Shown here in pieces: positions 3,712 through 41,571 of a DNA stretch of 64,000 nt. This DNA is from Verrucomicrobia bacterium UBA6176 (GTDB taxonomy: Bacteria; Verrucomicrobiota; Verrucomicrobiia; Limisphaerales; UBA9464). The translations under genes and the position numbers were made by a program. The stretch is taken from assembly GCA_002422905.1 (NCBI GenBank), contig DITU01000103.1, forward strand, positions 1,961-65,960, read 5' to 3'. Under the pieces are notes generated by a model that saw nothing but the letters and a program-made list of their open reading frames with translations, did not search any database and had not been told where the DNA came from. The number at the start of each line of letters is the position of its first letter. Position 1 is the first letter of the stretch.

Positions 3712-5130
3712 ATGAAAAACCTCGTGGTGATGGCGGTTGCGGTGCTTTTGGGGGCTGGGTGCGATTCCGGGACGGCGACGTCCACGACGCCGGCGGTGTT
3801 GGCGCGCTGGCGTTCCGCCGGTGCGGCGATTGCCATGGCGCAGACCAACGCGCCGGTCTTGAAGCAGGCGTTGACCCTGCCGGAATCGGCCGGGTTGGGA
3901 GACCGTTTCGCGACGAATCTGGCGCGGATGATCTCGCAGCGGTCGGGTGGTGGGTTGAGCGAAGGAGCGCTGTTCCCGGTGGTACGGGCTGCCGTTGAGC
4001 ATGAATCGGCCGGGGAAATCACCACGGACGGTTGGATGGTGGCGATCCGTGCGATGGGTCTGGACACGGCGCCCTGGACGGCGGCGGTGAGTGGATGGGG
4101 GAAGGCGGGGGGGACGGCGCCGGTGACGGTGGTGACCAACGGATGGTGGATGGCGGCGTCGCGGGCGGCAGGGTTGGCGCGTGCTGCATCGATGCCGGCG
4201 GCGACGCCGGGTGGATTGTTCACGGGCGAACTGGATCTGGCGGGATTGCCGGGGGGAGATCCGCGATGGCCGCGGGTGTCGATGACGTTGGGGATGAGCA
4301 ACGCCCTGGTGCGGACGGATGCCATCCTGGATTTTGCGACGGCGCCATTGGGTGAGTTGGAGGCGTGGAAGATTCCGGACGGACTCATCCATGATCCGGT
4401 GATCCGTTTCAGTGCGGCGCGGGGGATCGGTCCGGTGGTGGAACAGATGCCGTGGCTGAAGATGTTGTGCGGTGGCAAGGCACCGGGCCAAGTGACGGCG
4501 TGGGCGCAGCCGGAGGTGACCTTCAGGAACTGGTTTGCGGTGCCGGTGGATGACGGGAAGGCGCGGATCACGGAGATCCACAGATCCCTGCAATCGTATT
4601 TCGGCACGAGCAACGCGCCGGGGCAGTACATCGGGCGGTTGATCCTGAATTCAAACCGCACGGCGATGGCGGTGTTCGATCTGAAGGCGTGTACGCCGAC
4701 GATGTCGACGGTGGAGAAGGGCGGGCAGAGCTTTCTGGTGAATGGTTTCTTCGCGCCGATGCGGACGACGAACCCAATCCCGGCGGAGTTGCGGGCGCGG
4801 GTGGAGCGGCCGGAGATCGCGTGGTACGAATGGGAGATCACGGGAGAGAGTGCTCGAAACTGGAATGTGTTGGCGCAGTTCAACCGGTTGGCGCAGCGGG
4901 AGGCACCGAACCCGACCCATGCCGACGGATTGAAATGGATGATGGCGACGACGCCGAAGCTGGGGAATGCGGTGACGGAACTGAGCCGGATCACCCCGAC
5001 GCGTTACGAGTTGCATCGGAAGTCGGACATCGGGTTGAACGGACTGGAGTTGGTGATGTTGTCCCGCTGGTTGGATGGCGAGGCGAAGGTCGCGCTGCCG
5101 GTCCCTGGATTGCCGTCGAAGAACCCCTGA
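3712..5130 (+). CDS. Hypothetical lipoprotein
   Basis: ATG at 3712 gives [20 protein letters not shown], a lipobox. The 472-aa protein has non-biased composition and no domain I recognise. Confidence 0.6.
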
Positions 5131-5134
5131 CCAC

Positions 5135-5875
5135 ATGCTGCTTCTTGGAGTCAACATCGACCATGTGGCCACCCTGCGGGAGGCGCGATACCGTGGCATG
5201 CCCGAGGGCGAACCCGACCCGGTGGAGGCGGCATTGCTGGCCGAGGCGGCGGGGGCGCACGGCATCACGGCGCATCTGCGGGAGGATCGCCGGCATCTGC
5301 AGGATCGCGACGTCTACCGGTTGCGCGAGGCGATCGGCACCCGGTTGAACTTCGAGATGGCGGTGGTGCCTGAGATCATCGCGATCGCGTTGCAGGTCCG
5401 GCCGGACATCGTGTGTCTGGTGCCGGAGAAACGCACGGAGGTGACGACGGAAGGCGGACTGGATGTGGTGGGAGGCGCCGTGGGGATCCGTGAGACGACG
5501 TCACGGATGCGGGATGCGGGGATTGAGGTGAGCCTGTTCATCGATCCGGATCCGGCGCAGATCGAGGCGGCGGCCCGGACGGGGGCTGGGTTCATCGAAT
5601 TGCATACCGGGGCGTATGCGGCGGCATTTGATTCGAAGCGGGAACGGAATGTGGAACTGGAGCGGTTGGTGGCGGCGGCGAAGCAGGCGCACGGACTGGG
5701 GTTGAAGGTGAATGCGGGGCATGGATTGAACCTGAAGAACCTGCCGCTGTTGCACGTGGTCCCACACCTGGTGGAACTGAACATCGGGCATCACCTGATG
5801 AGCCGTGCGATCGCGGTGGGATTGCCGACGGCGATCCGGGAGATGCTGGGGGCGATGGCGGGGTACCCGGGTTGA
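5135..5875 (+). CDS. pdxJ: Pyridoxine 5-phosphate synthase
   Basis: [18 protein letters not shown]..., [10 protein letters not shown] and VELNIGHHL motifs. Length about 246 aa. Confidence 0.9.
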
Positions 5876-6097: not shown

Positions 6098-8989
6098 CTA
6101 CTTGGACTGGCCTCGGGCGGTGAGGCTGCGGGGGATGTATCCGATGGAGGTCTGGATGGCGTGGGTGCAGGAGCAACCGGCGCTGGTCTCGGGGGCGAGG
6201 AGGAATCCGCCGGCGGGAATCAGGCTGAGCCAGCAGCCGGAACGGATGCCGAGGAACTGCTGGCGTTTGTCGGATTCGAGATCCCACATGCCGTGGAAAT
6301 GGTGCCGGAAGAAGATGGCGCCCTTGGCGGCGGACATGACGCCGCATCCGCGACGTTCGGGTAGGTCCTTACTGAGGAGTTCACCGGTGACCATGTTGAA
6401 GGAGCGTTGGTCGGAATAGAAGGTGTCGCCGATGACGACGGGATGCTGGAGGTGACCGCTGTGGTGGCCCTTGTCTTCCTTGTGGGTTTCGGACCAGAGG
6501 AGACGCCCGCCGATGGCGCTGGCGATGTCGTCGCCGCCTGATTTCGGAGCCTTGGAGGAGGGGGCGTTGAAGGCAAACGTGTGGAAATGTTTGCGGCGGT
6601 CGGTACCGGTGACGACGACGGAATTGTTGCCGTAGACGAGGTAGCTCATGAATTCGAGCGAGCTGAAGTCGTGATCCTTCTCCCAGAGTTTACGACCGGT
6701 CTTGCGGTCGAGCGCGACCAGGAACTGTTCGGTCAGGACGGCGGGATCGAGTCGGGCATTGGGGGCATTGATGGCGGCAGGATTCCGGCTTTCGAGGAAG
6801 AACACCATGTCATCGCCCTGGGTGATGGTGGAGTTGAGGATGGCGCCGCCGCGGTATTCCCAGAGGACCTTTCCGGTGGCTGGATCCTGGGCGAAGAGGA
6901 GGTCGCTGGTGACCCGGCTGACCTGGTCCGAGGCGTATTCCTCGTACCATTCGCCGTCATCGCCGAGATAGGCTGAATCCCGTTTCACACGGCTGCCTAC
7001 GATGAAATCGGATCCGGCGGCGATGTAGCCCCAATCGCGTTCCAGTTGGTTGTCCGAGGTGGGGACGGCGAGTCGGATGCGGCGTTCACCGGTCTGGCCG
7101 TCGATGCCGAGACAGAAGCGACCATGGACGATGAAGAGGAGGTCGCCGGCGGCGGACATGTTGGAGCAGTCGCGGGTGACATTGGCGCGCCGGATTTCGG
7201 GGACGGAGTAATTCCAGAGGATGGCGCCGTTGTAGGAGTCGAGACCGAACAGCACGCGGTCGCCCTGGACGAAGAGGCGGCCATTGACGCTCAGGGGAGC
7301 GGGATTGCGGTTGCCGCGATCGGGCATGGGGCGTGGGCCGGGATCACCCCACCAGGCGACGTCGAGTTCGCCCTTCACGAGTTCGTCCTGGCTGCACGCC
7401 GAGTTGTCGGCGCCGCCGTATTGATGGGACCAGTCGCCGGATCCGGCGAGGCGTGGGCGGAGGAAGGCGAGACGGGTTGCGCCGGGCTTGCCGGTGGTCA
7501 GCGCGGCAAGGGGGGAATCCCCGAGCCAACGGGTCCAGGCGGCGGAATCGGGTTGGGCGGCATCGACCAGAAACGCCCCGCCGGAAGGCCGGATCAACCG
7601 ATGCACCTCGGCGGCGCTGATGAACGGCGGGCGGCCGTCCTCGACCAGGACCAGGTTGATGGAGAGATCGCCGTAGGGGAGCTCGGGAGAGGCGGCGTGA
7701 TGCACGGCGGCGCGGATGCCCTGGATCCCGGCGGCATCGAGATCGCGTCGGAGGGCGGGGATGCGGGAGGCATCGGGTTCGACGAGGATGAGATCGAATT
7801 CGCTGTGCCGGACGATTTCGATGGCGAGTGCGGCGGAGGGAGAGCCGAGGAGGAGGGCGTAGCCCTTGGAGACACCGGCGGCGGCGAGGATTTCGCGGGC
7901 GCGAGCGGCGGGACCGGTGGGAGCGGCGGGGCTGGGAGCGGGAGCGGGAGCGGGCCGGTAATAGAACGAGGTGTCGAACTGATAACGACGGGAGACGACC
8001 TTGCGGGGTCCTTCGGGCGGGGCGACGAGGCGGTAATGGTATTCGAGGTCGGGTTCGAGTTCGGTGAGCGTGATGGAATGGCGGGTCCTGGATTGGCCAT
8101 CGCCGAGGCGTTGGGTGCCGATGCCGGGACGTTCGAGCTCCAGGAGGGTGGGTTGGGGGACGGCGGATTCCCAGGTGACGACGGCCGAGTTGCGATCCTG
8201 CCAGTCGACGAAGGGACCGTATTCGGGTTTGAAGAAGCGGGGTTCGGGAGCGGGTTCGGGGAAGAGGTCCTTGCGGGCCTGGTACCGGGCGAGGAGTTCG
8301 GCGGGGGCGAGGGCGCGACGGAGCAGACGGACTTCGTGGATGGCGCCGGAGAGGCGGTAATGTTCATCTTCATCCTGGTAGGCGCCGATGACGAACGGGG
8401 CGGAGGGAGGGTAGAGGATGGGCCCGGACTGTTCGCGACTGGACCCGGCGAGGGTGCCATTGACGAAGACGCGCATCTCGGAGCCGTCATAGGTACCGGC
8501 GACGTGATACCAACGATTGGTTTCGAAGGTGGAGGTGGCGGCGAGGTAGGTGAGTCGTTGGGTGCCTTCGGAAGCGATGGCGAGGGAGAAGTGGTTGTCG
8601 ACGAAGCCGAGGAGCCAGCCGCGTTCGAAATCCCCATTGTCCTGGAGGGCGCCGATGATGCCGCCCCATTTCGAGGTGCGGTCGACGCGTACCCAGGCTT
8701 CCGCGGTCATTTCGCGGTTGGGTTGCTGGGATTTGTCGAGGGTGGACGAGATGACGATGCGTTCGTCGCGTCCGGGGAGTTCGATGCGGGCCGGGGGCGG
8801 ATCGCGGAGGACGCTGGGGGCGGCGAAGAAGGACACACCGGGACCGGAGACGGCGCGCATGCCGGAGTTCTGGGTCCGTTCCGGGGTAAATTCCCAGTGA
8901 CCGATCAGACCGGTTTCCTGGGCGTGAAGGGACAGGCCGAGGGCGAGTGCGAGGGTTGAGAATGACGAAGGGGAGGGGAGGAGGTTCAT
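6098..8989 (-). CDS. Secreted multidomain protein: LamG (concanavalin-like), FN3-like, degenerate methyltransferase-like region and PQQ-like beta-propeller
   Basis: Starts MNLLPSPSSFSTLALALGLSLHA (signal peptide, ATG 8989). LamG_3-like stretch AEAWVRVD...WYHVAGTYDGSEMRVFVNG...IHEVRLLRRAL. FN3-like stretch VVTWESAVP...YHYRLVA. Rossmann-like stretch GYALLLGSPSAALAIEIV...LILVEPD. Propeller-like repeats such as G.ILWNY and GKVLWEY. Confidence 0.75.
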   Translation of the reverse strand: MNLLPSPSSFSTLALALGLSLHAQETGLIGHWEFTPERTQNSGMRAVSGPGVSFFAAPSVLRDPPPARIELPGRDERIVISSTLDKSQQPNREMTAEAWVRVDRTSKWGGIIGALQDNGDFERGWLLGFVDNHFSLAIASEGTQRLTYLAATSTFETNRWYHVAGTYDGSEMRVFVNGTLAGSSREQSGPILYPPSAPFVIGAYQDEDEHYRLSGAIHEVRLLRRALAPAELLARYQARKDLFPEPAPEPRFFKPEYGPFVDWQDRNSAVVTWESAVPQPTLLELERPGIGTQRLGDGQSRTRHSITLTELEPDLEYHYRLVAPPEGPRKVVSRRYQFDTSFYYRPAPAPAPSPAAPTGPAARAREILAAAGVSKGYALLLGSPSAALAIEIVRHSEFDLILVEPDASRIPALRRDLDAAGIQGIRAAVHHAASPELPYGDLSINLVLVEDGRPPFISAAEVHRLIRPSGGAFLVDAAQPDSAAWTRWLGDSPLAALTTGKPGATRLAFLRPRLAGSGDWSHQYGGADNSACSQDELVKGELDVAWWGDPGPRPMPDRGNRNPAPLSVNGRLFVQGDRVLFGLDSYNGAILWNYSVPEIRRANVTRDCSNMSAAGDLLFIVHGRFCLGIDGQTGERRIRLAVPTSDNQLERDWGYIAAGSDFIVGSRVKRDSAYLGDDGEWYEEYASDQVSRVTSDLLFAQDPATGKVLWEYRGGAILNSTITQGDDMVFFLESRNPAAINAPNARLDPAVLTEQFLVALDRKTGRKLWEKDHDFSSLEFMSYLVYGNNSVVVTGTDRRKHFHTFAFNAPSSKAPKSGGDDIASAIGGRLLWSETHKEDKGHHSGHLQHPVVIGDTFYSDQRSFNMVTGELLSKDLPERRGCGVMSAAKGAIFFRHHFHGMWDLESDKRQQFLGIRSGCWLSLIPAGGFLLAPETSAGCSCTHAIQTSIGYIPRSLTARGQSK

Positions 8990-10410
8990 CGGGAGATCTC
9001 CGTGGAGGCGGTGGTGGGGGTTGAAAGGGAGGCCTGGGTGGTGCCGGTGCGGAGGCAGTGGATGGTGCCCTGGTCGGTACTGATGAAGAGGGCGCCGTCG
9101 GAGGCGGCGATGCCGTAGGCGCGACCGCGTACGGGATGACGCCAGGCGAGGGAACCATCGGTGGCATTGAGGGCGGCGACTTCGTCGGTGCCGCCGGCGA
9201 CGAGGGTAGTGCCGGCGAGGACGAGGCAATGTTGCCAGGAGGAGGGGGAACGCCAGAGCTGGCATTGGTCCATGCCCTGGGTGGCGGCATCGAGGCGTTT
9301 GCCGAGGTCGGCGAGCTGGGACTTGAGGGAGTCGCGTTCGGATTCCGTGGCGGCCTTGTTGCCGAGGGCCTTGAGTTTCTTGTTGAGGGCGGCCTGTTCG
9401 GTGCCGAGCTGTTTGCGTTCGCGGGCGAGGGCGAGGTAACGGGCGCGGTCGAGGGCGGTGAGTTCGGTGTCGGAATGGAGGAAGGACCGTTCCGGGGTGA
9501 CGATCATGTGGTTGCCCTGGAAGCTGGCGAGTTGGTCGGAACGGCCTTCCTCGACGGCACCGAGTTGACCGGTCTTGCCGGGGCCGAAGACGAGCATGTC
9601 ATCGGTGAGCAGGGCGTAGGTGCCACCGGCGCCCTCGACGACGCGGATGCGTTTGCCGGACTCGATGTCACACACGGCGGGGTTGTCGCGTCCGGCGGGG
9701 ATATAGAGGCGGGAACGGGAGGCGAGGAGATAGCCCTGGGCGGGGAGATCGTTCTGGATCTGGCGCCATTTCTCGGAGCCGTCGCGGGCATCGAGGGCGA
9801 CCAGGTGGACGCCCTCGACGGGGAACATGCCGGCGGTGGTGTAGAGGAGACCGTCCTGGACAACGATGGAAGTGCGGACGGGCCAGGCGGAGATCATGCG
9901 GCCATTGCCGGGGATGCGGCGATCCCTGGGGGTGGCGCGGACCTTCCAGGCCAGCTTGCCGGAATCGGCCTCCACGCAATACACGCAGCCATCGTCGGAA
10001 CCGAAGTAGGCGCGTCCGTTCTGGACGGTGGGGGCGAGACGGACGGGGCCTTCGGTGTGGAAGGTCCAGAGGAGCTTGCCGGAACGGGCGTCAAGACAGC
10101 GCACCTGGTCGTCGGCGGAGGAACCAAAGAACACCTTGCCGCCGGCGACGGCGACGTGGAAGGCGCGGTCGAAGGTCTGGCGCGGCTTCATGTTGAAGAC
10201 CTTGTTCCAGCCGTCCCATTTGGCTTCGCCCTGCCAGGCGGGCTGGGGCGGGTGGATGGATTGCCAGGACCAGGCCTCGGCGAGGCGGGGCGGGAGGGGA
10301 TCGGTCGAGACGCCGCTGCGGGAATAATCGCCGCGATAGGTGGGCCAATCGGTGGCCTGAATCGAGGCGAGGGTGCCGAGGAGGCAGAGGAGGGAGGAGA
10401 ACGGTTTCAC
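8986..10410 (-). CDS. Secreted PQQ-like (BamB-like) beta-propeller repeat protein with a coiled-coil insert
   Basis: MKPFSSLLCLLGTLASIQATDWPTYRGD is a signal peptide followed by a typical PQQ-repeat opening. Repeats GKLLWTF, GKLAWKV, GSEKWRQ and GSLAWRH. A coiled-coil segment reads ALNKKLKALGNKAATESERDSLKSQLADLGKRL. GTG start at 10410 overlaps the upstream stop (GTGA). Confidence 0.75.
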   Translation of the reverse strand: MKPFSSLLCLLGTLASIQATDWPTYRGDYSRSGVSTDPLPPRLAEAWSWQSIHPPQPAWQGEAKWDGWNKVFNMKPRQTFDRAFHVAVAGGKVFFGSSADDQVRCLDARSGKLLWTFHTEGPVRLAPTVQNGRAYFGSDDGCVYCVEADSGKLAWKVRATPRDRRIPGNGRMISAWPVRTSIVVQDGLLYTTAGMFPVEGVHLVALDARDGSEKWRQIQNDLPAQGYLLASRSRLYIPAGRDNPAVCDIESGKRIRVVEGAGGTYALLTDDMLVFGPGKTGQLGAVEEGRSDQLASFQGNHMIVTPERSFLHSDTELTALDRARYLALARERKQLGTEQAALNKKLKALGNKAATESERDSLKSQLADLGKRLDAATQGMDQCQLWRSPSSWQHCLVLAGTTLVAGGTDEVAALNATDGSLAWRHPVRGRAYGIAASDGALFISTDQGTIHCLRTGTTQASLSTPTTASTEISR

Positions 10411-11096
10411 GAGGCGATCAGGGGTTTTGGGGTGGAGGAAAGGGAGGAGACGATGCGGCCGGCTTCGAGTTGGACGATGCGGGTGGCGAAGGGATGGGCT
10501 TCGTGACCGTGGGTTACCACGACGACGGTGCCGCCGGCGTGGCGGAAGGCGTTGAGTTGGTTGAAGACAATGGCGCTGTTGGCGGGATCGAGGCTGCCGG
10601 TGGGTTCGTCGGCGAGGATGATCGGGGGTTGCTTGGCGAGGGCGCGGGCGAGGGCGACGCGTTGGCGTTCGCCGGCGCTGAGGGTGGTGGGGAAGGCGTC
10701 CTGACGGTCGCTCAGGCCGAGGTCACGGATCCAGGTTTCGACGCGGGCGACGGCCTCGGGGGATGCGGAGGGAAGACCGGCGAGGATGTTGTGGCGGACG
10801 TCGAGGTAGGGGACGAGGTGGAAGAGTTGGAAGACGAACCCGATGGAACGGGCGCGGAATTGGGAACGTTCGGCGGCGGACAGGGAGTAGGGATTGACTC
10901 CATCGACGGTGATGGTGCCGGAGTTGGGCCGGAGCATGCCGGCGAGGGAGAGGAGCAGGGTGGATTTGCCGCAGCCACTGGGGCCCTGGACGACGACGAA
11001 TTCGCCGCGGTCGATGTCGAGGGAGACATCGACGAGTCCGGCCACGGCATTGGAGCGGGTGGCGAACTGGCGGGTGAGGTGGGAGCAGGAGATCAC
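10407..11096 (-). CDS. ABC transporter ATP-binding protein (MacB/LolD/FtsE-like)
   Basis: Walker A GPSGCGKST, signature LSAGERQRVALARAL, Walker B ILADEPTGSLD. Start is GTG at 11096 or TTG at 11102, the latter overlapping the upstream stop at 11099-11101. Confidence 0.85.
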   Translation of the reverse strand: MISCSHLTRQFATRSNAVAGLVDVSLDIDRGEFVVVQGPSGCGKSTLLLSLAGMLRPNSGTITVDGVNPYSLSAAERSQFRARSIGFVFQLFHLVPYLDVRHNILAGLPSASPEAVARVETWIRDLGLSDRQDAFPTTLSAGERQRVALARALAKQPPIILADEPTGSLDPANSAIVFNQLNAFRHAGGTVVVVTHGHEAHPFATRIVQLEAGRIVSSLSSTPKPLIAS

Positions 11097-11098
11097 GG

Positions 11099-12253
11099 TC
11101 AATCGGCGCGTAGGGTTTCGGCGGGGTCCTGGGTGACGGCGATCATGGCCGGAAGGAACGAGGCGAGGGCGGCGAAGCCGGGGGCGAGGAGAAGGGCCCA
11201 GGGCAGGAGCAGATGTTCGGGTTGGATACCGGCAGCGGTGACGGGGAACAGGCGTGGGCCGAAGCTGAGGGCGATGCCGGTGCCGGCGAGGTAACCGAGG
11301 AGGGCGGCGACGAGGCCGAGGAGGATGGCCTTGCCGAGGAAGAGGGAGGCGATGCGGGTGGAGCTGGTACCGAGGGCGCGCCAGAGACCGAGTTCCTGGC
11401 GGCGATTGCGGACGTTGAGGATGGCGAGGGTGCAGGTCCAGGCGGCGGCGACGAGCAGGGTGAGGGGAACGGCGAAGGCGGCGACGCGTTCGGCGGCCTG
11501 ACGTTGCCGGGCGCGGGCATCGGCCATGGTGCGCATCTGGATGACGCGGGATTCGGGCAGGAGTTTCTCGAGTGCCTGCCGCAACTGGGTGAGGGGATCC
11601 TGATCGGCGGTGAGGCAGAGGCAATCGATGGCCTTGATCTCACTGATGCGGTCGGGAAGCCCGAGAATGGCCTGGGCATCGCCGAGGGAAGTGAAGAGCC
11701 GGATGTCGTCGTCGGTGCCGGCCTCGACCAGGACCCGTTCCACGGTGAGGGCGCGTCCCTGGACATTCAGGGCGAGGCCGGGCTTGGCCTGGAGACGTTG
11801 GGCGAGCACATGACCGACGTAGGCCTTGCCATCGGGGATGTTGAAGCCCATGGGCTGTTTGCCTTCGCCGGGACCGACCACGGCGCGGCCGAGTCCAGTG
11901 AGCAGGGCTTCACGGCCTTCGAGCTGGATGCGGCGTTCGAGGGAGGGAGTGAGGTGATTGAAGCTGAGGAAGGCGCCGGCGCCGGCGGCGAGGCGTTGGA
12001 CGGAGTCGGCGGGGAGGGTTCCGGAGGAGTAACCCGTGAGGAAGAACTGCTCGGGATCGGTGTCGCGCGGAATGATGCGGAGATTGAAACCGAGATCGCG
12101 GACCACGCGCCGGGTCTCGCGTTCGGCGGCGGTGGTGAGGAGGCGGACGACAACCAGCAGGGCGACCGCGGCGGTGAGGGCGAACAGGGCAAGGCCGGCA
12201 TTGAACCGGTGATGCCGCAGCTCGCGAAGGATGAGGGAGACCGGGGAGATCAT
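11099..12253 (-). CDS. ABC transporter permease, FtsX/MacB type (1 + 3 TM with a large extracytoplasmic domain)
   Basis: Starts MISPVSLILRELRHHRFNAGLALFALTAAVALLVV. A loop of about 250 aa is followed by three C-terminal TM helices (AFAVPLTLLVAAAW, ILLGLVAALLGYLAG, LLLAPGFAALASFLPAMIAV). ATGA overlap with the upstream gene at 12250-12253. Confidence 0.8.
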   Translation of the reverse strand: MISPVSLILRELRHHRFNAGLALFALTAAVALLVVVRLLTTAAERETRRVVRDLGFNLRIIPRDTDPEQFFLTGYSSGTLPADSVQRLAAGAGAFLSFNHLTPSLERRIQLEGREALLTGLGRAVVGPGEGKQPMGFNIPDGKAYVGHVLAQRLQAKPGLALNVQGRALTVERVLVEAGTDDDIRLFTSLGDAQAILGLPDRISEIKAIDCLCLTADQDPLTQLRQALEKLLPESRVIQMRTMADARARQRQAAERVAAFAVPLTLLVAAAWTCTLAILNVRNRRQELGLWRALGTSSTRIASLFLGKAILLGLVAALLGYLAGTGIALSFGPRLFPVTAAGIQPEHLLLPWALLLAPGFAALASFLPAMIAVTQDPAETLRAD

Positions 12254-13446
12254 CGGGAGGAAGACCGGAAAAAGAGCCAGGTGCCAGCGGCGAGGGCGGC
12301 GGTGATGGCACCGGCGAGGACGATCCAGGCGCGTCGGGCGCCGGAGGTTTCCGCCGCAGCAGATCCAGCCGGGGGAACTCCGATGGTAGCCGGCGGGGCA
12401 GGAGTTGTGACGACCTCGGAAGTGTCGGTGGGGTCGGAGAGATCGGTGGGAGGGGTGGAATCGGAGGGGTCGACGACGGGTTCCTCGATGGATTCCTCGG
12501 AGTAGCCGAGGGCCTGGGAGGTCGCGGGGGTGCGCTTTCGTTGATTGGCCTGGGGACCGCGTTCGATGATCCGGCTGACCTCGGCGCGGACGACGGGGTT
12601 TTCGGGGTCGAAACCGAGGGTGCGGGCGGCGGTTTGCTGGAGGGTTCGATCCCAACGTCCGGGGAGGAGAGGACCGCTGAGCCAGGCGCGATCGAGTTCG
12701 CATTCGCAATCCTGGCCGATGAGGACGAGGCGTTCGCGGAGGGCGGTCTGGGTGATGAGCGGGCCTTCGAGGGTGGAACCGAGACGACGACCGCGACCGA
12801 AGACCAGGGCCATGCGGGGTGAATCGGTGGGGGCGGGGTCGAAGCCGAGACCCCAGAGCAGGACGGATTCGGCGGCTTGTTCAGCGGGCGAAAGGCTGAG
12901 GAGGACGGGTGGGACATCCATGGGCTTGGCCATGGTGGGAAGGAGCCGGGTGATGGCCTCGATGGCGGCCTGGGCGGCGGCGCGTGCGTTCTGGTTCGCG
13001 GTGGAATCGGAACCTTCGATCAACAGGACGACGGCGTAGGCGCGGAGGGTTTCGCGGAAGAGCCGGTCGCGGGCTGGGGAGGAGGCGACGGATTCGAGGA
13101 GGCGAAGGGCGTCGGCTGGGGCGGACGGGTCGAGACGGGCGATGTCGAGGGTGCGCCGGTCGGAATCGACGAGACGCAGGCCGGGACCCTGACCGGGAGC
13201 CGGGGCGGGTCCGTTGGGATCGAAGGCGATGTTGGAATCGAGGAGGAGGGCGGCGGCGGCCTGTTGAAAGGTCTGGCGCAGGGTATTGGGAAAGGCGGGA
13301 TCAGCGACGAGTTCGAGCCGGTAGGCGGAGGTGCCGAGGTCGATGAAGCCGGTGTCGCGCACCGAATAACGGCAGGCAACGGCGATGGAATGCGGACTGA
13401 TCGCGAGGAAGAGTCCCAGCAGGAGGATGAAGTGGCGCCCCGACAT
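12250..13446 (-). CDS. Hypothetical secreted / C-terminally membrane-anchored protein (CRYSVRDTGF motif)
   Basis: ATG 13446 gives MSGRHFILLLGLFLAISPHSIAVACRYSVRDTGF (signal peptide). Internal DCECE motif. A disordered P/S/T/D/E-rich linker precedes a C-terminal TM helix AWIVLAGAITAALAAGTWLFF. I recognise no domain. Confidence 0.6.
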   Translation of the reverse strand: MSGRHFILLLGLFLAISPHSIAVACRYSVRDTGFIDLGTSAYRLELVADPAFPNTLRQTFQQAAAALLLDSNIAFDPNGPAPAPGQGPGLRLVDSDRRTLDIARLDPSAPADALRLLESVASSPARDRLFRETLRAYAVVLLIEGSDSTANQNARAAAQAAIEAITRLLPTMAKPMDVPPVLLSLSPAEQAAESVLLWGLGFDPAPTDSPRMALVFGRGRRLGSTLEGPLITQTALRERLVLIGQDCECELDRAWLSGPLLPGRWDRTLQQTAARTLGFDPENPVVRAEVSRIIERGPQANQRKRTPATSQALGYSEESIEEPVVDPSDSTPPTDLSDPTDTSEVVTTPAPPATIGVPPAGSAAAETSGARRAWIVLAGAITAALAAGTWLFFRSSSR

Positions 13447-13460: not shown

Positions 13461-14246
13461 CTACAAGCCGGCGCAGTCCGGACAATCCACAATCCGGTGG
13501 AGTCGCAGCATTTTCACACGATAGGAACGCAGATCCCACGTGAGGAGGCGGGATTCGAGGGTGGGAGTGATCCCGGTGACGAGTTTGATGGTTTCGAGGG
13601 CGGCGAGGGAGCCGGCGACACCGGGTACGGCGCCGAGGACGGGGAAGCGACGGGTCCAGGTGGTACTGGGCTGGGGATAGAGACAGCGGAGACAGCCGGA
13701 TCGGCCCGGGATGAAGGAAGTCAGGTGCAGATCGAAATCATGGACGGCGGCCTCGACCATGGGTTTCCGGGAGGCCATGGCGTGGTGATTGAGGAGATAC
13801 CGTTCGGAGAAGAGGGGGGCGCAATCGACGACGACATCGGCCTGGGCGACGAGGCGGGCGACGTTGTCGGGTTGGATGTTGTGGGGTTCGGCGACGATTT
13901 CGAGGCGTGGGTTGAGGGCCTTGAGACGGGCGACGGCGCTGTCGATGCGGGGTTTCCCGATGTGATCATGGGTCATCAGGAGCTGGCGATTGAGGTCGGA
14001 GGGCCGGAGCAGGCCGCCATGGGCGAGGATGAGACGTCCGACACCGGCGGCGGCGAGTTCGAAGGCGACCATCCCGCCGAGGCCGCCGACGCGGGAGACG
14101 AGGACAGAGGCGCCCTTCAGGCGGCGTTGGGCGGATTCGCTGAAGCCGGAGACATCGGACTGCCATTCGTAGGTGGCGATTTCCTCCGGGGAGAGCTCGG
14201 GCAGATCGGGATCAGGTGCGGAGGGAACGGGATTCGATGTGGCCAT
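13461..14246 (-). CDS. ThiF/MoeB/HesA-family E1-like adenylyltransferase
   Basis: Nucleotide-binding loop VSRVGGLGGMVAFELAAAGVGRL. Zinc motifs GCLRC and CPDC at the C-terminus. Proposed ATG 14246 (MATSNPVPSAPDPDLPELSPEEIATYEWQ) overlaps the upstream ABC ATPase gene by 35 nt. Confidence 0.8.
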   Translation of the reverse strand: MATSNPVPSAPDPDLPELSPEEIATYEWQSDVSGFSESAQRRLKGASVLVSRVGGLGGMVAFELAAAGVGRLILAHGGLLRPSDLNRQLLMTHDHIGKPRIDSAVARLKALNPRLEIVAEPHNIQPDNVARLVAQADVVVDCAPLFSERYLLNHHAMASRKPMVEAAVHDFDLHLTSFIPGRSGCLRCLYPQPSTTWTRRFPVLGAVPGVAGSLAALETIKLVTGITPTLESRLLTWDLRSYRVKMLRLHRIVDCPDCAGL

Positions 14247-14862
14247 CGGTGAGGACGAGGATGCGGTCGGCGAGACGTTCGGCCTCGGACCGGTTGTGGG
14301 TGATGTGGAGCAGGGTGATGCCGGTGCGGGCGCGGATATCGGCGAGGACCTGGCAGATATCGGACCGGGTTTCGTCGTCGAGGGCGGAGAGGGGTTCGTC
14401 GAGGCAGAGGACGGACGGTTGGAAGGAGAGGGCGCGACCGAGGGCGACGCGTTGGGATTCGCCGCCGCTGAGGCCGTGGGGACGGCGGTCGAGGATGGTA
14501 TCGAGCTGGAGCCAGAGGCTGAGTTCGGCGACGCGTTGGCAGATGCGGTCAAGGGGCCAGCGCCGGAGTTCGAGGGCGAAGGACAGGTGTTGTCGGACGG
14601 TGAGATGTTCGAAGAGGGCGCCGTCCTGGGGGACGAAGCCGAGACCGCGTTGGCCTGGAGGGGCGAGGGTGACATCGGAGCCATCGACGAAGATGCGGCC
14701 GGCGGAGACGGGACGGAGTCCGCAGATGGCTTCGAGGAGGGTGGTCTTGCCGGAGCCGGTACGGCCCATGAGGGCGGTGTGGCTGCCGGTGGGGATCTCG
14801 AAGGAGACCCTGGCGAGGGAAAAGGTGCCGGCATGAACGGTGACCTGGTCGAGGGCGATCAT
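14212..14862 (-). CDS. ABC transporter ATP-binding protein, ModC-like (short, no TOBE domain)
   Basis: Walker A GRTGSGKTT, signature LSGGESQRVALGRAL, Walker B LCLDEPLSALD. Sits next to ModB-like and ModA-like genes. Confidence 0.8.
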   Translation of the reverse strand: MIALDQVTVHAGTFSLARVSFEIPTGSHTALMGRTGSGKTTLLEAICGLRPVSAGRIFVDGSDVTLAPPGQRGLGFVPQDGALFEHLTVRQHLSFALELRRWPLDRICQRVAELSLWLQLDTILDRRPHGLSGGESQRVALGRALSFQPSVLCLDEPLSALDDETRSDICQVLADIRARTGITLLHITHNRSEAERLADRILVLTDGHIESRSLRT

Positions 14863-14863: not shown

Positions 14864-15748
14864 TCAGCTCGGGGGGTGGGAGTGGGTGGCGGGGAGGCCG
14901 AGGGTGCGGATGAGGACGAGGACGGCGACGGCGGCGAAGATCATGAGGAGGGAGACGGCGACGGCGGCCTCGATGTTGCCGATGGAGAGTTCGAGGAAGA
15001 CGGTGGTGGGAAGGACCTCGGTCTTCATGCGGGTGGCACCGGAGAAGATGAGGATGGGGCCGAATTCACCGAGGGCGCGGGCCCAGGCGAGGGTGGCGGC
15101 GGTGAGGATCCCGCGGCGTGCGGAAGGGAGGACGACGCGCCAGAAGGCCTGGGAACGGGAGCAACCGAGGGTCAGGGCGACCTGTTCGTGTCGGGGACTG
15201 AGTTGTTCGAAGGTGGCGCGCATGGTGCGGACGGCGAAGGCGCAGGCGACCATGAACTGGGCGAGGATGATGGAGGGAATGGCGTAGGTGATGGGGAAGA
15301 TCCGTTCGAGGGCGCGGAGTGGTGGGGCCTGGAACAGGATGAGGAGGCTGAGCCCGATGACGAGGGGAGGCAGGACGATGGGGATGTCGAGGATGGCATC
15401 GAGGAGGGCGCGCCCGGGGAAGCGGAAGCGGGCGAGGAGATAACCGACGGGAACGGCGACCCAGAGGGAGAGGATGGTGGTGAGGGTGCAACTCAGGAGG
15501 CTCAGGCGGATGGAGTACTGGATCTCGGGACTCTTGAGGGCGCGCCACAGGTGGCCGGGGGTGGTGTAGAAGAGGTCGGCTGCGACGGTGGCGAGGAGGA
15601 GCAGGACGTAGGTGCCGGCGAGGATCCCGAGACACAGGTAGAACACCCTGTCCGAACCGCCCCGTGGGAGCGGAGTTTGTGGAGCGGGCTTGGAAGTGGA
15701 CGGGGACGGATCACCGGGCATCGGGAACCTTCCATCGGAAACCGGCAT
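14864..15748 (-). CDS. ABC transporter permease, ModB/CysTW type
   Basis: Multi-TM protein with the EAA-type loop region TLGCSRSQAFWRVVLPSARRGI. ATG at 15748, with an alternative ATG at 15721. Overlaps the upstream ModA-like gene. Confidence 0.8.
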   Translation of the reverse strand: MPVSDGRFPMPGDPSPSTSKPAPQTPLPRGGSDRVFYLCLGILAGTYVLLLLATVAADLFYTTPGHLWRALKSPEIQYSIRLSLLSCTLTTILSLWVAVPVGYLLARFRFPGRALLDAILDIPIVLPPLVIGLSLLILFQAPPLRALERIFPITYAIPSIILAQFMVACAFAVRTMRATFEQLSPRHEQVALTLGCSRSQAFWRVVLPSARRGILTAATLAWARALGEFGPILIFSGATRMKTEVLPTTVFLELSIGNIEAAVAVSLLMIFAAVAVLVLIRTLGLPATHSHPPS

Positions 15749-17213
15749 TGAGGAAACGGTCGCGGGACGCCTGGGCGCGAAGCTTTTCGTAGAGGCGCGA
15801 CATCAGTTGGGCGTGATCGGATTCGAGGCCGACGGCATAGGGTTGGATGGCGATGGCACCGGGGCTGGAGACGGCGATGACGTCGAGGTGATCGAGGACC
15901 TGGGAAGCATTGACGGCGTAGACGAGGGCGACATCGAGGCCGCCGGAGCGGAGTTGGTTGACGAGGAGATCGCCGGTGGGGGATTGGACGGAGACATTGC
16001 CGGAGACGGATTCGTGGAGGCCGACATTGCGGAGGAGACGGGCGGTGAGGGCGCCGAGAGCGCTCTGTTGTTCGTGACAGAGGCCTACCTTGAGGCCGGG
16101 TCGGGCGAGATCGGCGAGGCTGGAGATTTTGGCCGGGTTGCCTTTCTGGACGAGGAGGACGAGGTCGGTTTCGGCGAGGGCGACGGCGGGTTGGAAGCCG
16201 GACTGGACGGTTTCCATGAAGGAGACATCGCAGGCGAAGTAGGCGTCGGGCCGTTGCCCGGCGCGGATCTGGGCGGTGAGGATGCCGCAACCATTGTAGA
16301 CGCGGGTGACCTGGACCCCTTCGCGCAGTTCGAATTCGCGGAGGGATTCCTCGATGGCGACGCGGTTGACGGTCCCGCTGTAGAGGAGGACGGAAGGGTT
16401 GGGTTGCCAGACGTCACCGGTCACCGGGGTGAAACCGGCCGTGGCGAAGTGGGGCAGGCCTCGGTCGCGTGCGGCGAGGTAGCGGGCGAAGCGAAGGGCG
16501 TCGGTGGGTTGATCGCAGGAACGGAGGACGCAGACCGAGACGTGGGACGGGTGGGGGACGAGTTCGGCGGCGGGGACGGCTTCGAGTTCCGGGTATTGGC
16601 GGACGGTGGCATCCCAGAGGATCCCGGCGTCGACGGAGCCGATCTTGATGTCATTGGCGACGTCGGTGACGGTGGGTTTGAAGACGAGGGCGCGGGTGGA
16701 AAGGGCGTCCCAGGTGCCGGCCTGGGAAAGGGCGGAGCGGGTGAGGGAACCGCTGGCGGTGGCGTCGGGATTGGGGAGGGCGACCCGGACACCGGGTTGG
16801 AGGAGGCTGGAGATGCCGGAGACCTGGCGGGGATTGCCTTTGGGAACGCCGATGACCGCGGTCATGCGGGCTAGTGGGAGGACTTCGTCGATGAGGTTGT
16901 TGGAACGGGCGAGGTCGACGAAGGAAGAATCGGCGGCGATGAAGAGGTCGCCGCGTTGGGCGACGCGGAGGTTGTTGAGGAGGGTGCCGGAGCCTCCGAA
17001 CTGGAGTTGGATGGGGGTGCCGTATTCGCGTTCGTATTCGCGGGCGGCGGCTTCGACGGGGGCGCGGATGCCGGCGGCGCAAAAGACGACGAGGGGACGG
17101 GAGACGGTGGTGCGGGAGGTGTTGGAGGGACTGGATTGATTCCAGACCATCAGGGCGATAAGGAGCCCGATGGCTCCGAGGGAACCGAGGATGACGCCGC
17201 GTGCGGAAAACAT
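15711..17213 (-). CDS. Tandem (duplicated) ModA-like periplasmic substrate-binding protein
   Basis: Two consecutive ModA-type halves. The first is LVVFCAAGIRAPVEAAAREYEREYGTPIQLQFGGSGTLL...DAGILWDAT. The second is VLLYSGTVNRVAIEESLREFELREGVQVTRVYNGCGILTAQI...DVALVYAVNA. N-terminal signal anchor VILGSLGAIGLLIALMVW. ATG 17213; the ORF is open to a GTG at 17258. Confidence 0.75.
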   Translation of the reverse strand: MFSARGVILGSLGAIGLLIALMVWNQSSPSNTSRTTVSRPLVVFCAAGIRAPVEAAAREYEREYGTPIQLQFGGSGTLLNNLRVAQRGDLFIAADSSFVDLARSNNLIDEVLPLARMTAVIGVPKGNPRQVSGISSLLQPGVRVALPNPDATASGSLTRSALSQAGTWDALSTRALVFKPTVTDVANDIKIGSVDAGILWDATVRQYPELEAVPAAELVPHPSHVSVCVLRSCDQPTDALRFARYLAARDRGLPHFATAGFTPVTGDVWQPNPSVLLYSGTVNRVAIEESLREFELREGVQVTRVYNGCGILTAQIRAGQRPDAYFACDVSFMETVQSGFQPAVALAETDLVLLVQKGNPAKISSLADLARPGLKVGLCHEQQSALGALTARLLRNVGLHESVSGNVSVQSPTGDLLVNQLRSGGLDVALVYAVNASQVLDHLDVIAVSSPGAIAIQPYAVGLESDHAQLMSRLYEKLRAQASRDRFLNAGFRWKVPDAR

Positions 17214-17285
17214 GAGCCGGAAACAGGGTGTGGTGGTGTCCCATGGAGATCCTGCCACCGCTCCGGCGAGCCTTTCATGGGGCGT

Positions 17286-17852
17286 TCAGCGTGGCCAGCG
17301 TACGTGTTCGAAATCCGGTGTCGGTCGGGTGAAGATTCCTTCGGGGACCGCATTGGAATCGATGGAAAGGAACTCGATGCGGTAGGTGACCCCGGCGCGG
17401 AGGAGGAAGGTCTGGGGGAGGATGGGCGTCTGGTCGGTGACGGGGTTCCCGGGACCGGGTTGGGCGCCACCGAAACCGGCCACGACGGGGGTCTGCTTGG
17501 ACCTTGGAGTGCCTGGGGCGAGGGGATCGGGTTGACGCAGGACGGCGGTGACGGCGAGTACGGCGAGGCCGGCGGCGATGAGGGCATTTGCGCCGGCGAA
17601 GGCGGGTCGGGTGCGGAGGGAGTCGAGGAAGCGTGTGAAGGGGGACGCGTTGCGACGGGCCTGGGTCTCGGCCTCGATCTGGCGCCGTACCTGGCGTTGG
17701 AAGTCCCGGAAGAAGCCTGGCGGCGGTGTTTCGTGGCGTTTGAGGGCGAGGAGGCGACCGACGGCCTCCAATTGGGCTTCGGATGTTTCCGGATTGGGTT
17801 CCGGGTGGGTGGCCGGGGATGTTTCCGGATCTCTTTCTGGGGTGCTTTCCAT
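17286..17852 (-). CDS. Putative anti-sigma factor (single-pass membrane protein)
   Basis: Starts 3 nt after the ECF sigma stop. Central TM helix ALIAAGLAVLAVTAVL. The call is based on position and topology, not on a recognised domain. Confidence 0.5.
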   Translation of the reverse strand: MESTPERDPETSPATHPEPNPETSEAQLEAVGRLLALKRHETPPPGFFRDFQRQVRRQIEAETQARRNASPFTRFLDSLRTRPAFAGANALIAAGLAVLAVTAVLRQPDPLAPGTPRSKQTPVVAGFGGAQPGPGNPVTDQTPILPQTFLLRAGVTYRIEFLSIDSNAVPEGIFTRPTPDFEHVRWPR

Positions 17853-17855
17853 GGC

Positions 17856-18515
17856 TCAACGCAAATAGTCCGAAAGCAGCGCCTGCAATTGCTGGCGTGC
17901 GTAGAACAGTCGTGAACGGACGGTCCCGGGATTGCATTCGAGGATCTGGGCGATCTCGTCGTGGGGCATTCCCTGGATGTCGTGCAGCGTCACCACCGTT
18001 CTGTGTTCCTCCGACAGCCTCATCATGGCCTCGTTCAAATGCTGGCCGAGTTCGCGGAGGTTGACGTCCCGACGGGGTGTCTTGTCGGAGATGAGCTGGA
18101 CCAGGCCGGGATCGTTTTCCGCGTTGAAATCGAGATCGTTGAGGGAGAGGTGCTGGGTGCGTTGCCGACGGGATTTGAGGTGATTGAGGGTGTGATTGAC
18201 GGCGATGCGGTAGACCCAGGTGTAGAAGCTGGAATCGCCCTTGAAATTGCGGAGGGCCTTCCATGCCTTGACGAACGCCTCCTGGGCGAGGTCGGTGGCG
18301 TCCTCGTGATTGGAGGTCATGTGGTATACCAGTGCGTAGATCCTTTCCTGGTAGCGCACGATGAGTTCGTCGAAGGCGTCGAGGTCACCGGACTGGGCGC
18401 GCCGCACCAGTTGCCGGTCCCCTGAATCCTCGGAGGGAGGAGAGGAAATCCCCGACAAGGGGACGGGGGCGGGGATGTGCGCGGGGATATCCATGAGCGG
18501 TGCGACTCCGGTCAT
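17856..18515 (-). CDS. ECF-type RNA polymerase sigma factor (sigma-70 family)
   Basis: Region 2 reads FDELIVRYQERIYALVYHMTSNHEDATDLAQEAFVKAW and FYTWVYRIAVN. Region 4 reads VVTLHDIQGMPHDEIAQILECNPGTVRSRLFYARQQL. Confidence 0.85.
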   Translation of the reverse strand: MTGVAPLMDIPAHIPAPVPLSGISSPPSEDSGDRQLVRRAQSGDLDAFDELIVRYQERIYALVYHMTSNHEDATDLAQEAFVKAWKALRNFKGDSSFYTWVYRIAVNHTLNHLKSRRQRTQHLSLNDLDFNAENDPGLVQLISDKTPRRDVNLRELGQHLNEAMMRLSEEHRTVVTLHDIQGMPHDEIAQILECNPGTVRSRLFYARQQLQALLSDYLR

Positions 18516-23400: not shown

Positions 23401-23583
23401 ATAGATCCGCCGAGCCCGTTGCGGATCCATGCCCTGGCGTGGAGCCCGGACGGCACGCGATTGGCGGCGGCCACGGCGCAGGGAAAGATCCGGGTCTGGG
23501 ATCTGCCGGTATTGGCCGGGGAACTGGTGAAACGGGGACTGGACCCGGGAGTGATCGATCCGGTGGACCGTCGGCAGCGCTGA
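20452..23583 (+). CDS. Ser/Thr protein kinase with N-terminal Cys4 motif, TM helix and C-terminal WD40-like beta-propeller repeats
   Basis: CPDCGQ...CPICL. Kinase motifs GGMGVVFRARQ, VAVK, HRDLKPSNVMV, DFGLA and SPSYAAPE. TM helix AVAGLAVALVLALLGLGVVGAVAAV. Repeats include DRTVRLWDL, GETRIWDI and GKIRVWDL. Confidence 0.88.
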   Translation: MSTPIDPVERARCPDCGQPLGKGVRPEFCPICLLGEAAEMEDVEPYLPEEMRVIGDYELMEEVARGGMGVVFRARQRSLGRIVAVKLMLGGDFATPEARTRFRGEAAAAARIQHPNIVAIHEIGEHEGQPYFSMDFIEGQTLAERVLAGPLPALVAARYIARVAAAVDHAHRQGVLHRDLKPSNVMVDGQDEPRVTDFGLAKELHGSSALTMTGAMLGSPSYAAPEQVRGEGSAVGVGADIYALGALLYHLLTGRPPFQGGTVQAVLHQVLETDPISPRTLNPSVPADLETVCLKCLEKEAVRRYPSALEVGEELGRFLAGEPVHARPLGWAGRLNRWAHRRPAVAGLAVALVLALLGLGVVGAVAAVRIVRAEQVAIRNLRDSLLVQARSLRLAGGPGQQTASLAAIEQALAREPDDPVRERAAREVIAALAQSDVEFMPGAELPWDPHRLMSIAGGDRWRSMGTDGIVGDFRGNDVVAGRNWQLPESMSRARLGMASVEGDVQVFEDGDRLWVLELGEGELRSLATLKPKPRHHALSPDGRWLVTADEGSALVWEDLRGGARHRIETGLAGWRHLGFTPDGKRLAAAPLLTNSVDLYLTESRGLEARLIQPGPASMVAWSPDSQRFVVATQDGRLFYHDLMARGRILSFTFAPAQPRGMVMDPTGRLLATAWDDRTVRLWDLHGGRLLVEAHGDAARMGFRSNTAAFGPVQQRGRVGWYRMIPAKGFEETLAGYLGSSELDVRFSADSRWMAGRYQLGVRVFETGAPDGGWILGTEFPKAMAFSRGGTSLAVVDRAGVGMWTLESGQGVARGRWGMRSAPGLVAVAACYQDVGWWVGGLDGSIEKIDQMTGMPMRQLGIHPGLDSMVTDPQGIWLVSLNSASGETRIWDIEAGTEVHRIRSGAGAGAGAQFSPDGARLAIWGDGLVMLETEGWKPVRLPLEAGGPVLGAAAFSPDGTRLAVVSDVYGILLMDLAGNRITMWIDPPSPLRIHALAWSPDGTRLAAATAQGKIRVWDLPVLAGELVKRGLDPGVIDPVDRRQR

Positions 23584-41561: not shown

Positions 41562-41571
41562 ACCGCCCGTG

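Follow-up and report, generated by a model that had tools for sequence, protein, structure and literature searches.

Four ATP-binding cassette (ABC) systems of type VII have been described in Escherichia coli, where they serve efflux, lipoprotein release, cell-wall hydrolase control and lipid extraction. For type VII systems that work with periplasmic partners there is precedent (PMC12646458, PMC7668044). MacAB-TolC, LolCDE-LolA, FtsEX-EnvC and YbbAP-TesA have in common a separate LolD/FtsE-like ATPase, a permease with four transmembrane segments and a large periplasmic domain between the first two of them, and an extracytoplasmic partner encoded next door. All of this is found again in the locus described here, which lies in a 64,000-nt stretch (hereafter the window) of contig DITU01000103.1 from Verrucomicrobia bacterium UBA6176. 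A previous reading of the sequence alone (the sequence-only reading) had singled out five minus-strand genes, g1 to g5, as an operon that links a MacB/FtsX-type ABC pair (g2 and g3) to three exported proteins (g1, g4 and g5), and had suggested an envelope machine without a match among described systems. The ABC class, the coupling and the novelty stood; what that reading missed were four upstream genes, a core reduced to the triad g1-g2-g3, and the aminoethylphosphonate (AEP) context of the operon in sister genomes.

The locus departs from the known type VII systems in several respects. The periplasmic loop of the permease bears an invariant Asp-Cys-x-Cys and the scores with family models are all far below cut-off; the partner, g1, is modelled as a C-terminally anchored tandem thioredoxin fold, and not as a membrane-fusion protein, a LolA, a coiled-coil activator or an SGNH hydrolase; lastly, the g1-g3 module is genetically coupled to an importer that depends on a substrate-binding protein (SBP) and to an E1-like enzyme. 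The partner family and the cysteine signature have not been described before, and literature searches on the gene combination and on type VII ABC systems of Verrucomicrobiota and Planctomycetota gave no description of the module, nor did searches within three phosphonate papers. Our preferred reading, a tentative one, is that of a new type VII ABC mechanotransmission system, running a periplasmic cysteine relay that would feed an oxyanion-type importer.

The g1-FtsX-ATPase triad

The g2 permease matched Pfam FtsX (E 5.6e-12) and its orthologues match MacB_PCD. Hydropathy places its four transmembrane segments at about residues 21-39, 253-282, 301-319 and 348-366, with a periplasmic loop of ~215 amino acids (aa) between the first and the second. 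The g3 ATPase matched Pfam ABC_tran (E 3.7e-34) and, both below cut-off, FtsE (E 1.6e-49) and LolD (E 1.3e-48); LolD, MacB and FtsE are among its closest solved chains, and Walker A as well as the D-E-P of Walker B are conserved in 59 homologues. The FtsX match, the topology and the affinities of the ATPase thus support the class that the sequence-only reading had assigned to the pair, and its failure to place the pair in a described system was also well founded, the LolCE, FtsX, MacB, YbbP and ADOP models all scoring far below their curated cut-offs. On these scores we rejected membership of LolCDE (TIGR02212, 27.3 bits versus 362.45; the g1 leader is, moreover, not a lipobox), FtsEX (TIGR00439, 17.8 bits versus 255), MacAB-TolC (permease NF007826, 15.6 bits versus 966), YbbP and ADOP. 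A Pfam scan of g1 to g5 revealed no peptidoglycan-hydrolase or LytM-type family, and no membrane-fusion protein gene was found within 10 kb in five related loci (L001, L003, L101, L102 and L103).

The partner protein belongs to a family that profile searches leave without a name, in keeping with its having been called unknown. Neither alone nor as a profile did g1 match anything in Pfam, in NCBIfam or among the sequences of the PDB, and among 33 family members no Pfam model matched consistently down to E<=1, and no thioredoxin model matched any of them. The family comprises 852 representative (50%-identity) clusters at E<=1e-3; those relatives for which source names are given are annotated as hypothetical. 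The N-terminal hydrophobic segment, the CRYSVRDTGF motif (13345-13374) and the C-terminal transmembrane helix (residues 375-393, 12268-12324) noted earlier were all confirmed. The first cysteine of the motif is Cys25 (13372-13374); further on come a D-C-E-C (12700-12711), near-universal in the family, and an LGYSE (12496-12510). The residues invariant in the alignment are C25, R30, D31, C247, E248 and C249, and exactly three cysteines are present in 131 of 242 family sequences.

An AlphaFold model (predicted local distance difference test score, pLDDT, 84.8) folds g1 into tandem thioredoxin-like domains of the PDI b-b' type plus a helical extension that bears the Asp-Cys-Glu-Cys; after this fold come the conserved LGYSE, a low-confidence linker rich in Pro, Ser, Thr and Asp, and the C-terminal transmembrane helix with a basic tail. 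When compared with the PDB by Foldseek, the model was closest to the bb' domains of ERp57 (E 1.5e-4), then to PDI, QSOX, ERp44 and calsequestrin, with low template-modelling scores (TM-scores) which we attribute to domain orientation. The structure search called for by the sequence-only reading therefore ended on non-catalytic tandem thioredoxin-like folds, with no sequence-level family. The catalytic CxxC at the N-terminus of helix 1 is absent, and none of C25, C247 and C249 lies within a CxxC. The likeness to PDI b-b', calsequestrin and Sco-type proteins is one of tandem thioredoxin-like folds (Sco proteins are, in addition, membrane-tethered in the periplasm and have functional cysteines); g1 differs from them by the lack of sequence similarity and of a CxxC or CxxxC at the canonical position, and by having its cysteines at the mature N-terminus and on a C-terminal extension.

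An invariant cysteine behind a hydrophobic leader could denote a lipoprotein, a possibility that we rejected. In 242 sequences the residue that precedes the first cysteine is Ala 227 times, position -3 is small or aliphatic, and position -2 is Trp in 70 cases and often charged; these statistics fit the AxA of a signal peptidase I site, and not a lipobox. Most probably, then, g1 is cut at this site and the mature protein starts with the cysteine of CRYSVRD. The predicted architecture, in which our confidence is high, is that of a periplasmic protein tethered to the inner membrane via a long disordered linker and the C-terminal helix.

The loop of g2 carries the same kind of motif as the extension of g1, namely D-C211-L-C213 (11615-11626), invariant in 69 homologues from all lineages. 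This shared Asp-Cys-x-Cys, always co-inherited, is in our view the strongest internal clue to mechanism that the two sequences offer: it suggests that a thiol-bound ligand is exchanged, or that thiol chemistry takes place, between the two proteins.

Conservation was scored by tblastn with the window proteins in 98 related loci from genomes and metagenomes, collapsed to 54 lineages at 90% g1 identity; for each gene, only loci with enough flanking DNA were counted (Table 1). The constant core is the g1-FtsX-ATPase triad, and the other genes are modular. Of the five-gene set put forward earlier, the triad is always kept together; g4 and g5 are not always with it. The module built on g1 is common in Verrucomicrobiota and Planctomycetota and was seen in these two phyla only. 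The nearest relative of the window (L004, CAZDYB010000001.1; ~93-98% protein identity across nine genes) is labelled 'uncultured Akkermansia sp.', a genus label that looks doubtful as other relatives are labelled Pedosphaera, Limisphaerales or Verrucomicrobiales.

The nine-gene operon and its aminoethylphosphonate context in sister genomes

The five open reading frames (ORFs) are present on the minus strand in the order, and with the overlaps, that had been claimed. Four consecutive 4-nt stop/start overlaps (ATGA at 12250-12253, TTGA at 11099-11102, GTGA at 10407-10410 and ATGA at 8986-8989) bear out the tight coupling; for g3, an alternative GTG start lies 6 nt downstream. Since over 20 independent loci, whose proteins are 44-60% identical, show this gene order with these overlaps, the arrangement is not due to chance. 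The operon, however, begins four genes earlier than the sequence-only reading had it: the stop of the ThiF-type gene precedes the g1 start by 14 nt (the two overlap by 4 nt in L003 and L101), and the ModC/ThiF and SBP2/ModB genes overlap. We conclude with high confidence that g1 to g5 form the distal end of a minus-strand operon of nine genes, which runs from 17258 to 6098. The four upstream genes co-occur with g1 about as often as g4 and g5 do, across two phyla. At its 3' end the operon abuts a convergent plus-strand gene (5075-5875), pdxJ-like from a reading of its translation.

Table 1. Genes of the operon in the window, from 5' to 3', and number of lineages in which each accompanies g1
Gene	Position	Strand	Length (aa)	Product and remarks	Lineages
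SBP2 (ModA2)	15711-17258	minus	515	Tandem ModA-like binding protein; alternative start ATG 17213	24/30
ModB	14864-15748	minus		ModB/CysT-type importer permease (profile matches)	25/36
ModC	14212-14862	minus	216	ModC/WtpC/CysA-type importer ATPase (profile matches)	27/42
ThiF	13461-14246	minus	261	MoeB/ThiF-type E1-like adenylyltransferase; start ATG 14246	34/49 (directly upstream of g1)
g1	12250-13446	minus	398	New family
g2	11099-12253	minus	384	FtsX/MacB-type permease	45/45 (adjoining g1)
g3	10407-11102	minus	231	LolD/FtsE/MacB-clade ABC ATPase	42/42
g4	8986-10410	minus	474	Exported BamB-like/PQQ_2 beta-propeller	25/36
g5	6098-8989	minus	963	Exported LamG/FN3-like/Rossmann/propeller protein	22/34

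The closest described counterparts of the upstream genes are ModABC with MoeB/MoaD, together with the HesA-type MoeB-family proteins of nif clusters. SBP2, which has an N-terminal membrane anchor, exceeds the cut-off of the NCBIfam modA model (TIGR01256, 79 bits versus 62.5, in two matched stretches; 88.1 for the L102 orthologue), and both its halves align to solved ModA structures. The permease, which stays with SBP2 in related loci, is closest to the Mo_ABC_porter model (TIGR01581, 205.2 versus a cut-off of 210.3); it scored 155.3 versus 182.6 with ModB, and the ModB and CysT models both gave ~E 1e-45. For the ATPase, the best models were WtpC (E 1.5e-59), the sulfate ABC ATPase family (E 9e-56) and ModC (E 2.4e-50; 171.8 versus 285), all below curated cut-offs. 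It matches positions 6-214 of the 353-position ModC model and covers about the first 213 positions of the WtpC and ModC models, which are 347-353 positions long; it is thus without the C-terminal regulatory domain, which we take to be the last third of the ModC model. The E1-like protein matched at family level only, all scores being below equivalog cut-offs (the MoeB model NF006444, for instance, at E 1.6e-56); its CxxC...CxxC cysteines, Zn-binding in MoeB-like enzymes, are invariant in 41 homologues.

The differences from ModABC are of several kinds. A single anchored protein combines two ModA domains; the ModB- and ModC-like components remain below cut-off, the ATPase being the truncated one just described; and there is no MoaD gene in the window locus, a MoaD-like protein ending in GG being found in the Planctomycetota versions. 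The SBP2 pocket differs as well. Cys60 (17079-17081), Cys324 (16287-16289) and Cys343 (16230-16232) are each conserved in 28 of 28 sequences, Planctomycetota included, and the last two, neighbours in the pocket of domain 2, align with a Ser and an Ala, respectively, of solved ModA structures; in E. coli ModA these would correspond to Ser39, which binds the anion, and to Ala58. In domain 1 the positions of the E. coli ligands Ser12, Ser39 and Tyr170 are presumably occupied by Gly, Ser and Trp. Given such a cysteine-lined ModA-like protein, the automatic annotation of these genes as a molybdate transporter is probably wrong or incomplete.

In at least 13 non-redundant full-length Verrucomicrobial loci, the nine-gene block is flanked on both sides and on the same strand by phn genes, in several arrangements. 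The sister-locus proteins scored above the NCBI equivalog cut-offs for PhnW (493 versus 296), PbfA (650 versus 525) and PhnA (498 versus 408), and just below for PhnY (631.6 versus 635.65). In described AEP operons (PhnW-PhnY-PhnA or PbfA, with AepXVW, AepSTU or PhnSTUV as transporters) the transporter takes the position that the block holds in these lineages, on the same strand and with genes overlapping or near-abutting; the SBP2 start, for example, is overlapped in L102 and L103 by the stop codon of a class III aminotransferase gene lying upstream. The binding protein and the permease are, however, not homologous at family level to the described AEP transporters, and the block includes an E1, the type VII ABC module and a pair of exported propellers, which occur in no described phosphonate locus. 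Because the nine genes are embedded in phnW/pbfA/phnA/phnY operons, we read them as a machine that acquires a nutrient, namely a tetrahedral compound of the oxyanion type. The flanks of loci without phn genes contain no other recurrent neighbour.

Phosphonate-linked loci repeatedly encode another, second class III aminotransferase immediately upstream of the SBP2 gene (4948-6237 in L102; orthologues in L001, L005, L012, L040 and L103). It is nearest to glutamate-1-semialdehyde aminomutase and GntE, below cut-off, and matches no named phosphonate enzyme.

Propellers, variant loci and the surrounding window

Pfam and NCBIfam searches returned the domains assigned by the sequence-only reading: FtsX in g2, an ABC ATPase in g3, a PQQ-like propeller in g4, and LamG with PQQ_2 in g5. 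The g4 protein matched PQQ_2 at E 6.8e-26. A coiled-coil insert had been claimed for it; there is indeed a glycine-punctuated, helical-type insert of ~65 aa (around residues 315-380), but it does not pass a simple heptad test. The g5 protein, which has a conserved signal peptide, matched Laminin_G_3 (E 7.9e-28) and PQQ_2, and its AlphaFold model (pLDDT 83.6) comprises a LamG domain (28-223), an FN3-like beta-sandwich (257-339), a Rossmann alpha/beta domain (359-510; 7460-7915) and a propeller (540-953), so that the FN3-like and methyltransferase-like regions seen earlier reappear as a sandwich and a Rossmann-type domain. Foldseek matched the propeller fold to BamB (E 2.8e-12, TM-score 0.65), and the BamB model TIGR03300 gave 61.4 bits for g4 and 16.8 bits for g5, with a cut-off of 285.2: the g4 and g5 propellers appear to share the BamB fold without being BamB orthologues. 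Invariant in the g5 alignment are Cys882, Cys919 and Cys939-Ser-Cys941, the latter in a G-C-S-C loop (6167-6178) whose residues 937-939 have a pLDDT below 50.

The Rossmann domain of g5 is, judging by its distant homologues, a descendant of class I methyltransferases, degenerate in the window. A check of the residues that bind S-adenosylmethionine (SAM) had been proposed, and it turned out that motif I is not intact: it reads LLGSPSAA in the window and LGAxDG in Verrucomicrobial relatives, against DYGCGEG and DYGCGDG in the distant homologues P0323 and P0353. No Pfam methyltransferase model matched the domain of the window at E<=10, whereas the distant homologues do match; the acidic residue that ends strand 2 is kept, and so is an LRPxGG motif. 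We know of no SAM pool in the periplasm.

The association of the propellers with the triad is real but confined to certain lineages. Neither propeller accompanies it in the marine lineages that were sampled or in the three loci from Planctomycetota, and g4/g5-like proteins also occur, as a pair or fused, without the triad: in the cultured planctomycete Fuerstiella marisgermanici (CP017641.1; L099, 10001-14086), where a 1361-aa protein joins g4-like and g5-like parts with no triad nearby, and on another Planctomycetota contig. In the distant locus L098 a propeller gene is inserted between g1 and FtsX, an independent rearrangement. The same locus encodes, two genes upstream of g1 (8137-8922, plus strand), a 261-aa protein with a lipoprotein-like signal peptide and a canonical SAM methyltransferase domain (Methyltransf_11, E 1.7e-17); exported methyltransferases are unusual.

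Two further arrangements were observed. In the Planctomycetota loci L016 and L018 the order is TauE-g1-FtsX-ATPase-ModA2-ModB-ModC-MoaD-like-ThiF, i.e. seven shared genes, permuted. The 91-aa GG-terminated ThiS/MoaD-family protein between the ModC-like protein and ThiF (L016 15892-16167, L018 15947-16219) is found in Planctomycetota only, adjoining ThiF in these two loci alone, and the TauE/SafE-family gene lies directly upstream of g1 in L016, L017 and L018; tblastn found no homologue of either protein in the window. In a marine lineage (L085, 6069-9011; also L079, L086, L091 and L073) there is the triad only, followed by a DUF4126 membrane protein, PSCyt2/PSD1 (DUF1549/DUF1553) and a regulator that looks like Rex, with a divergent integrase-family (XerC/D-like) gene upstream.

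Directly upstream of the operon in the window, and also on the minus strand, a reading of the translations shows an ECF-type (extracytoplasmic function) sigma factor at 17856-18515 and, at 17286-17852, an anti-sigma-like membrane protein. The pair is common only to the closest relative, L004; L003, L042 and L045 have weak sigma matches (25-28% identity) downstream of g5. A 329-aa minus-strand ORF over the same region ('u5', 17275-18264) was rejected as a gene since its translation is Pro/Arg-rich nonsense and the real sigma and anti-sigma genes lie in another frame, which is also what its tblastn match to L004 reflects; it exemplifies the many long spurious ORFs in this sequence of 65% G+C. 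No riboswitch, for molybdenum cofactor (Moco) or other, was found upstream of the operon or anywhere in the window, and a promoter and terminator scan gave sites no more numerous than in shuffled sequence.

A few other observations concern the window as a whole. Its plus strand (1-64000) has a positive GC skew that in most 4-kb intervals lies between +0.20 and +0.33, much higher than is usual in bacteria, and that is independent of gene strand; it holds, for instance, over a plus-strand gene (20452-23583) for a 1043-aa protein in which WD40-type propeller repeats come after a Ser/Thr protein kinase domain. The skew collapses to ~0 only at 40-44 kb, within a segment (40001-48000) of lower G+C (0.55-0.56 versus 0.62-0.67 elsewhere), which may be an acquired island.

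A tentative mechanism and its rivals

The reading that we prefer would work as follows. ATP hydrolysis by g3 would move the periplasmic domain of g2, and not a solute across the membrane, as in MacB, LolCDE, FtsEX and YbbAP. This motion would load or strip a thiol-bound cargo between the D-C-x-C of g2 and the cysteine triad of g1, from which it would be handed to the tandem ModA-like SBP2 with its invariant pocket cysteines. Import would be through the ModB/ModC-like transporter, and handling in the cytoplasm would fall to the MoeB/ThiF-type E1, assisted in Planctomycetota by the MoaD-like carrier. The g4 and g5 propellers would be additions made in Verrucomicrobiota, serving at the envelope to capture the substrate or to scaffold it; the helical insert may allow g4 to dock, and g5 would contribute its LamG lectin domain and flexible CxC loop as well as a methyltransferase fold that has degenerated. 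Our confidence is not the same for all parts: it is high for the architecture and the extent of the operon, moderate for mechanotransmission to a cysteine-based partner, and low for the identity of the cargo. In phn-linked genomes the leading candidate is AEP or one of its conjugates; a group-6 or chalcogen (molybdenum or sulfur) oxyanion, suggested with similarly low confidence by the transporter homology and by MoaD and TauE in Planctomycetota, is the alternative.

Several points weigh against the cysteine relay that feeds an oxyanion importer, or against its link to phosphonates. The homology of the importer is to the molybdate/tungstate/sulfate clade rather than to the known transporters of phosphonates, the PhnU and PhnT models scoring much lower. 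The 64-kb window yielded no phn gene at E<=1e-30, and about 8 of the 21 full-length Verrucomicrobial loci are without phn genes within 10 kb. MoaD-like and TauE proteins in Planctomycetota point to sulfur or molybdenum rather than phosphorus chemistry, and we know of no role for a cytoplasmic E1 in phosphonate use. The marine lineages carry the triad alone; therefore its core function must be more general than that of the window operon. Lastly, the periplasmic cysteines may simply form disulfides.

The best placed of the rival explanations, although we think it unlikely, is a periplasmic cofactor relay for a thiophilic metal, or for a metal-sulfur or sulfane-sulfur species. Its logic would be that of NosDFY-NosL, where cytoplasmic ATP hydrolysis powers the periplasmic hand-over of a cofactor (copper or sulfur, to N2O reductase): the ABC pair would power transfer between the D-C-x-C sites of g2 and g1 and on to exported clients such as g5, while the importer and MoeB/MoaD would supply or recycle Mo, W or S. 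No homology to NosDFY-NosL was detected, its permease being of the ABC-2 fold and its partner NosD a beta-helix. An Asp-Cys-x-Cys on both partners, with an acidic site on g1, the usually odd number of cysteines (three) in mature g1, the four invariant cysteines of g5 with their flexible CxC, and the SBP2 score above the modA cut-off are all as this relay would have them. So are the MoaD-like and MoeB-like genes found together in L016 and L018, with TauE adjoining g1, and the tie of a HesA/MoeB-family protein to Mo and S handling (PMC6361004). It leaves the phnW/phnA/phnY embedding unexplained, however, and fits poorly with type I ModB-like permeases, which carry oxyanions and not cations. The putative clients g4 and g5 are lacking in a third of the lineages and elsewhere occur where there is no triad, genes for metal resistance, chaperones or client enzymes are not among the recurrent neighbours, and the window has no Moco riboswitch.

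Three other explanations appear clearly less probable still, and about equally so. The literal form of the sequence-only reading, an obligate five-gene envelope machine in which the ABC pair drives all three exported proteins, draws on the run of overlaps in the window, on the preservation of the five-gene order in ~22 Verrucomicrobial lineages and on the propeller gene interleaved between g1 and FtsX in L098; the helical insert of g4 could, by inference, dock on FtsX as EnvC does. An obligate set is hard to reconcile with the absence of g4 and g5 in 11-12 of ~35 triad-bearing lineages, with their occurrence alone in Fuerstiella and on the other Planctomycetota contig, and with the four upstream genes being linked at least as tightly.

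In a PDI-like thiol-disulfide oxidoreductase or folding chaperone, which we judge just as improbable, the b-type domains of g1 would hold exported clients that bear cysteines, a CxC would be the redox site, as in Mia40, at which their disulfides are formed or shuffled, and the FtsX pair would drive release. The structural similarity, which is greatest to the bb' domains with which ERp57 and PDI bind substrates, speaks for it, as do the CxC motifs in g1, g2 and g5; as the canonical CxxC is absent, any redox centre would have to be a CxC. No DsbB- or DsbD-like source of oxidising or reducing equivalents is linked to the locus, though, the triad persists where g4 and g5 are absent, and the association with ThiF and with an SBP-dependent importer, like the pocket cysteines of SBP2, would be left without explanation.

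The third, equally poor candidate is a MacB-like pump for efflux or detoxification, in which g2 and g3 would rid the periplasm or the membrane of a toxic thiol-reactive compound or metalloid, with g1 as adaptor or sink. It agrees with the type VII architecture and the MacB_PCD similarity, and the cysteine triads presumably resemble known As(III)-type binding sites. Yet neither a membrane-fusion protein nor an outer-membrane channel gene occurs within 10 kb in the loci inspected, g1 is without similarity to MacA-type adaptors, and the module is coupled to an importer and catabolic genes rather than to resistance genes. A Lol-like sorter with g1 as lipoprotein substrate or carrier, to which the invariant cysteine after a hydrophobic leader, the LolD-like ATPase and a weak LolCE similarity of the permease might have pointed, is very improbable in view of the AxA-type -3/-2 positions (Trp or charged residues at -2), of a LolCE score of 27 bits versus 362, and of a g1 that has a C-terminal anchor and a thioredoxin-like and not a LolA fold.

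To return to the cysteine relay feeding an importer, its fuller form is that the triad is an unrecognised type VII class doing ATP-driven periplasmic cysteine chemistry, in which g1, with its N-terminal Cys and CxC, and the CxC-bearing FtsX loop would capture or process a substrate, and that, with the cysteine-lined importer and the E1, it makes up a new phosphonate/oxyanion acquisition route in Verrucomicrobiota and Planctomycetota. This we hold to be possible, if on balance rather unlikely. If true, it would be a further, mechanistically different class of AEP uptake system, and a fifth type VII ABC type, in which invariant cysteines in the periplasm go with a partner of new fold, would extend the range of processes known to be powered by mechanotransmission. 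The g1 family, for its part, is large, absent from Pfam and NCBIfam, and was seen only in two environmentally dominant, poorly studied phyla. Its embedding in AEP operons is a testable physiological handle, and may reveal how the abundant Verrucomicrobiota of freshwater and soil get phosphorus from phosphonates.

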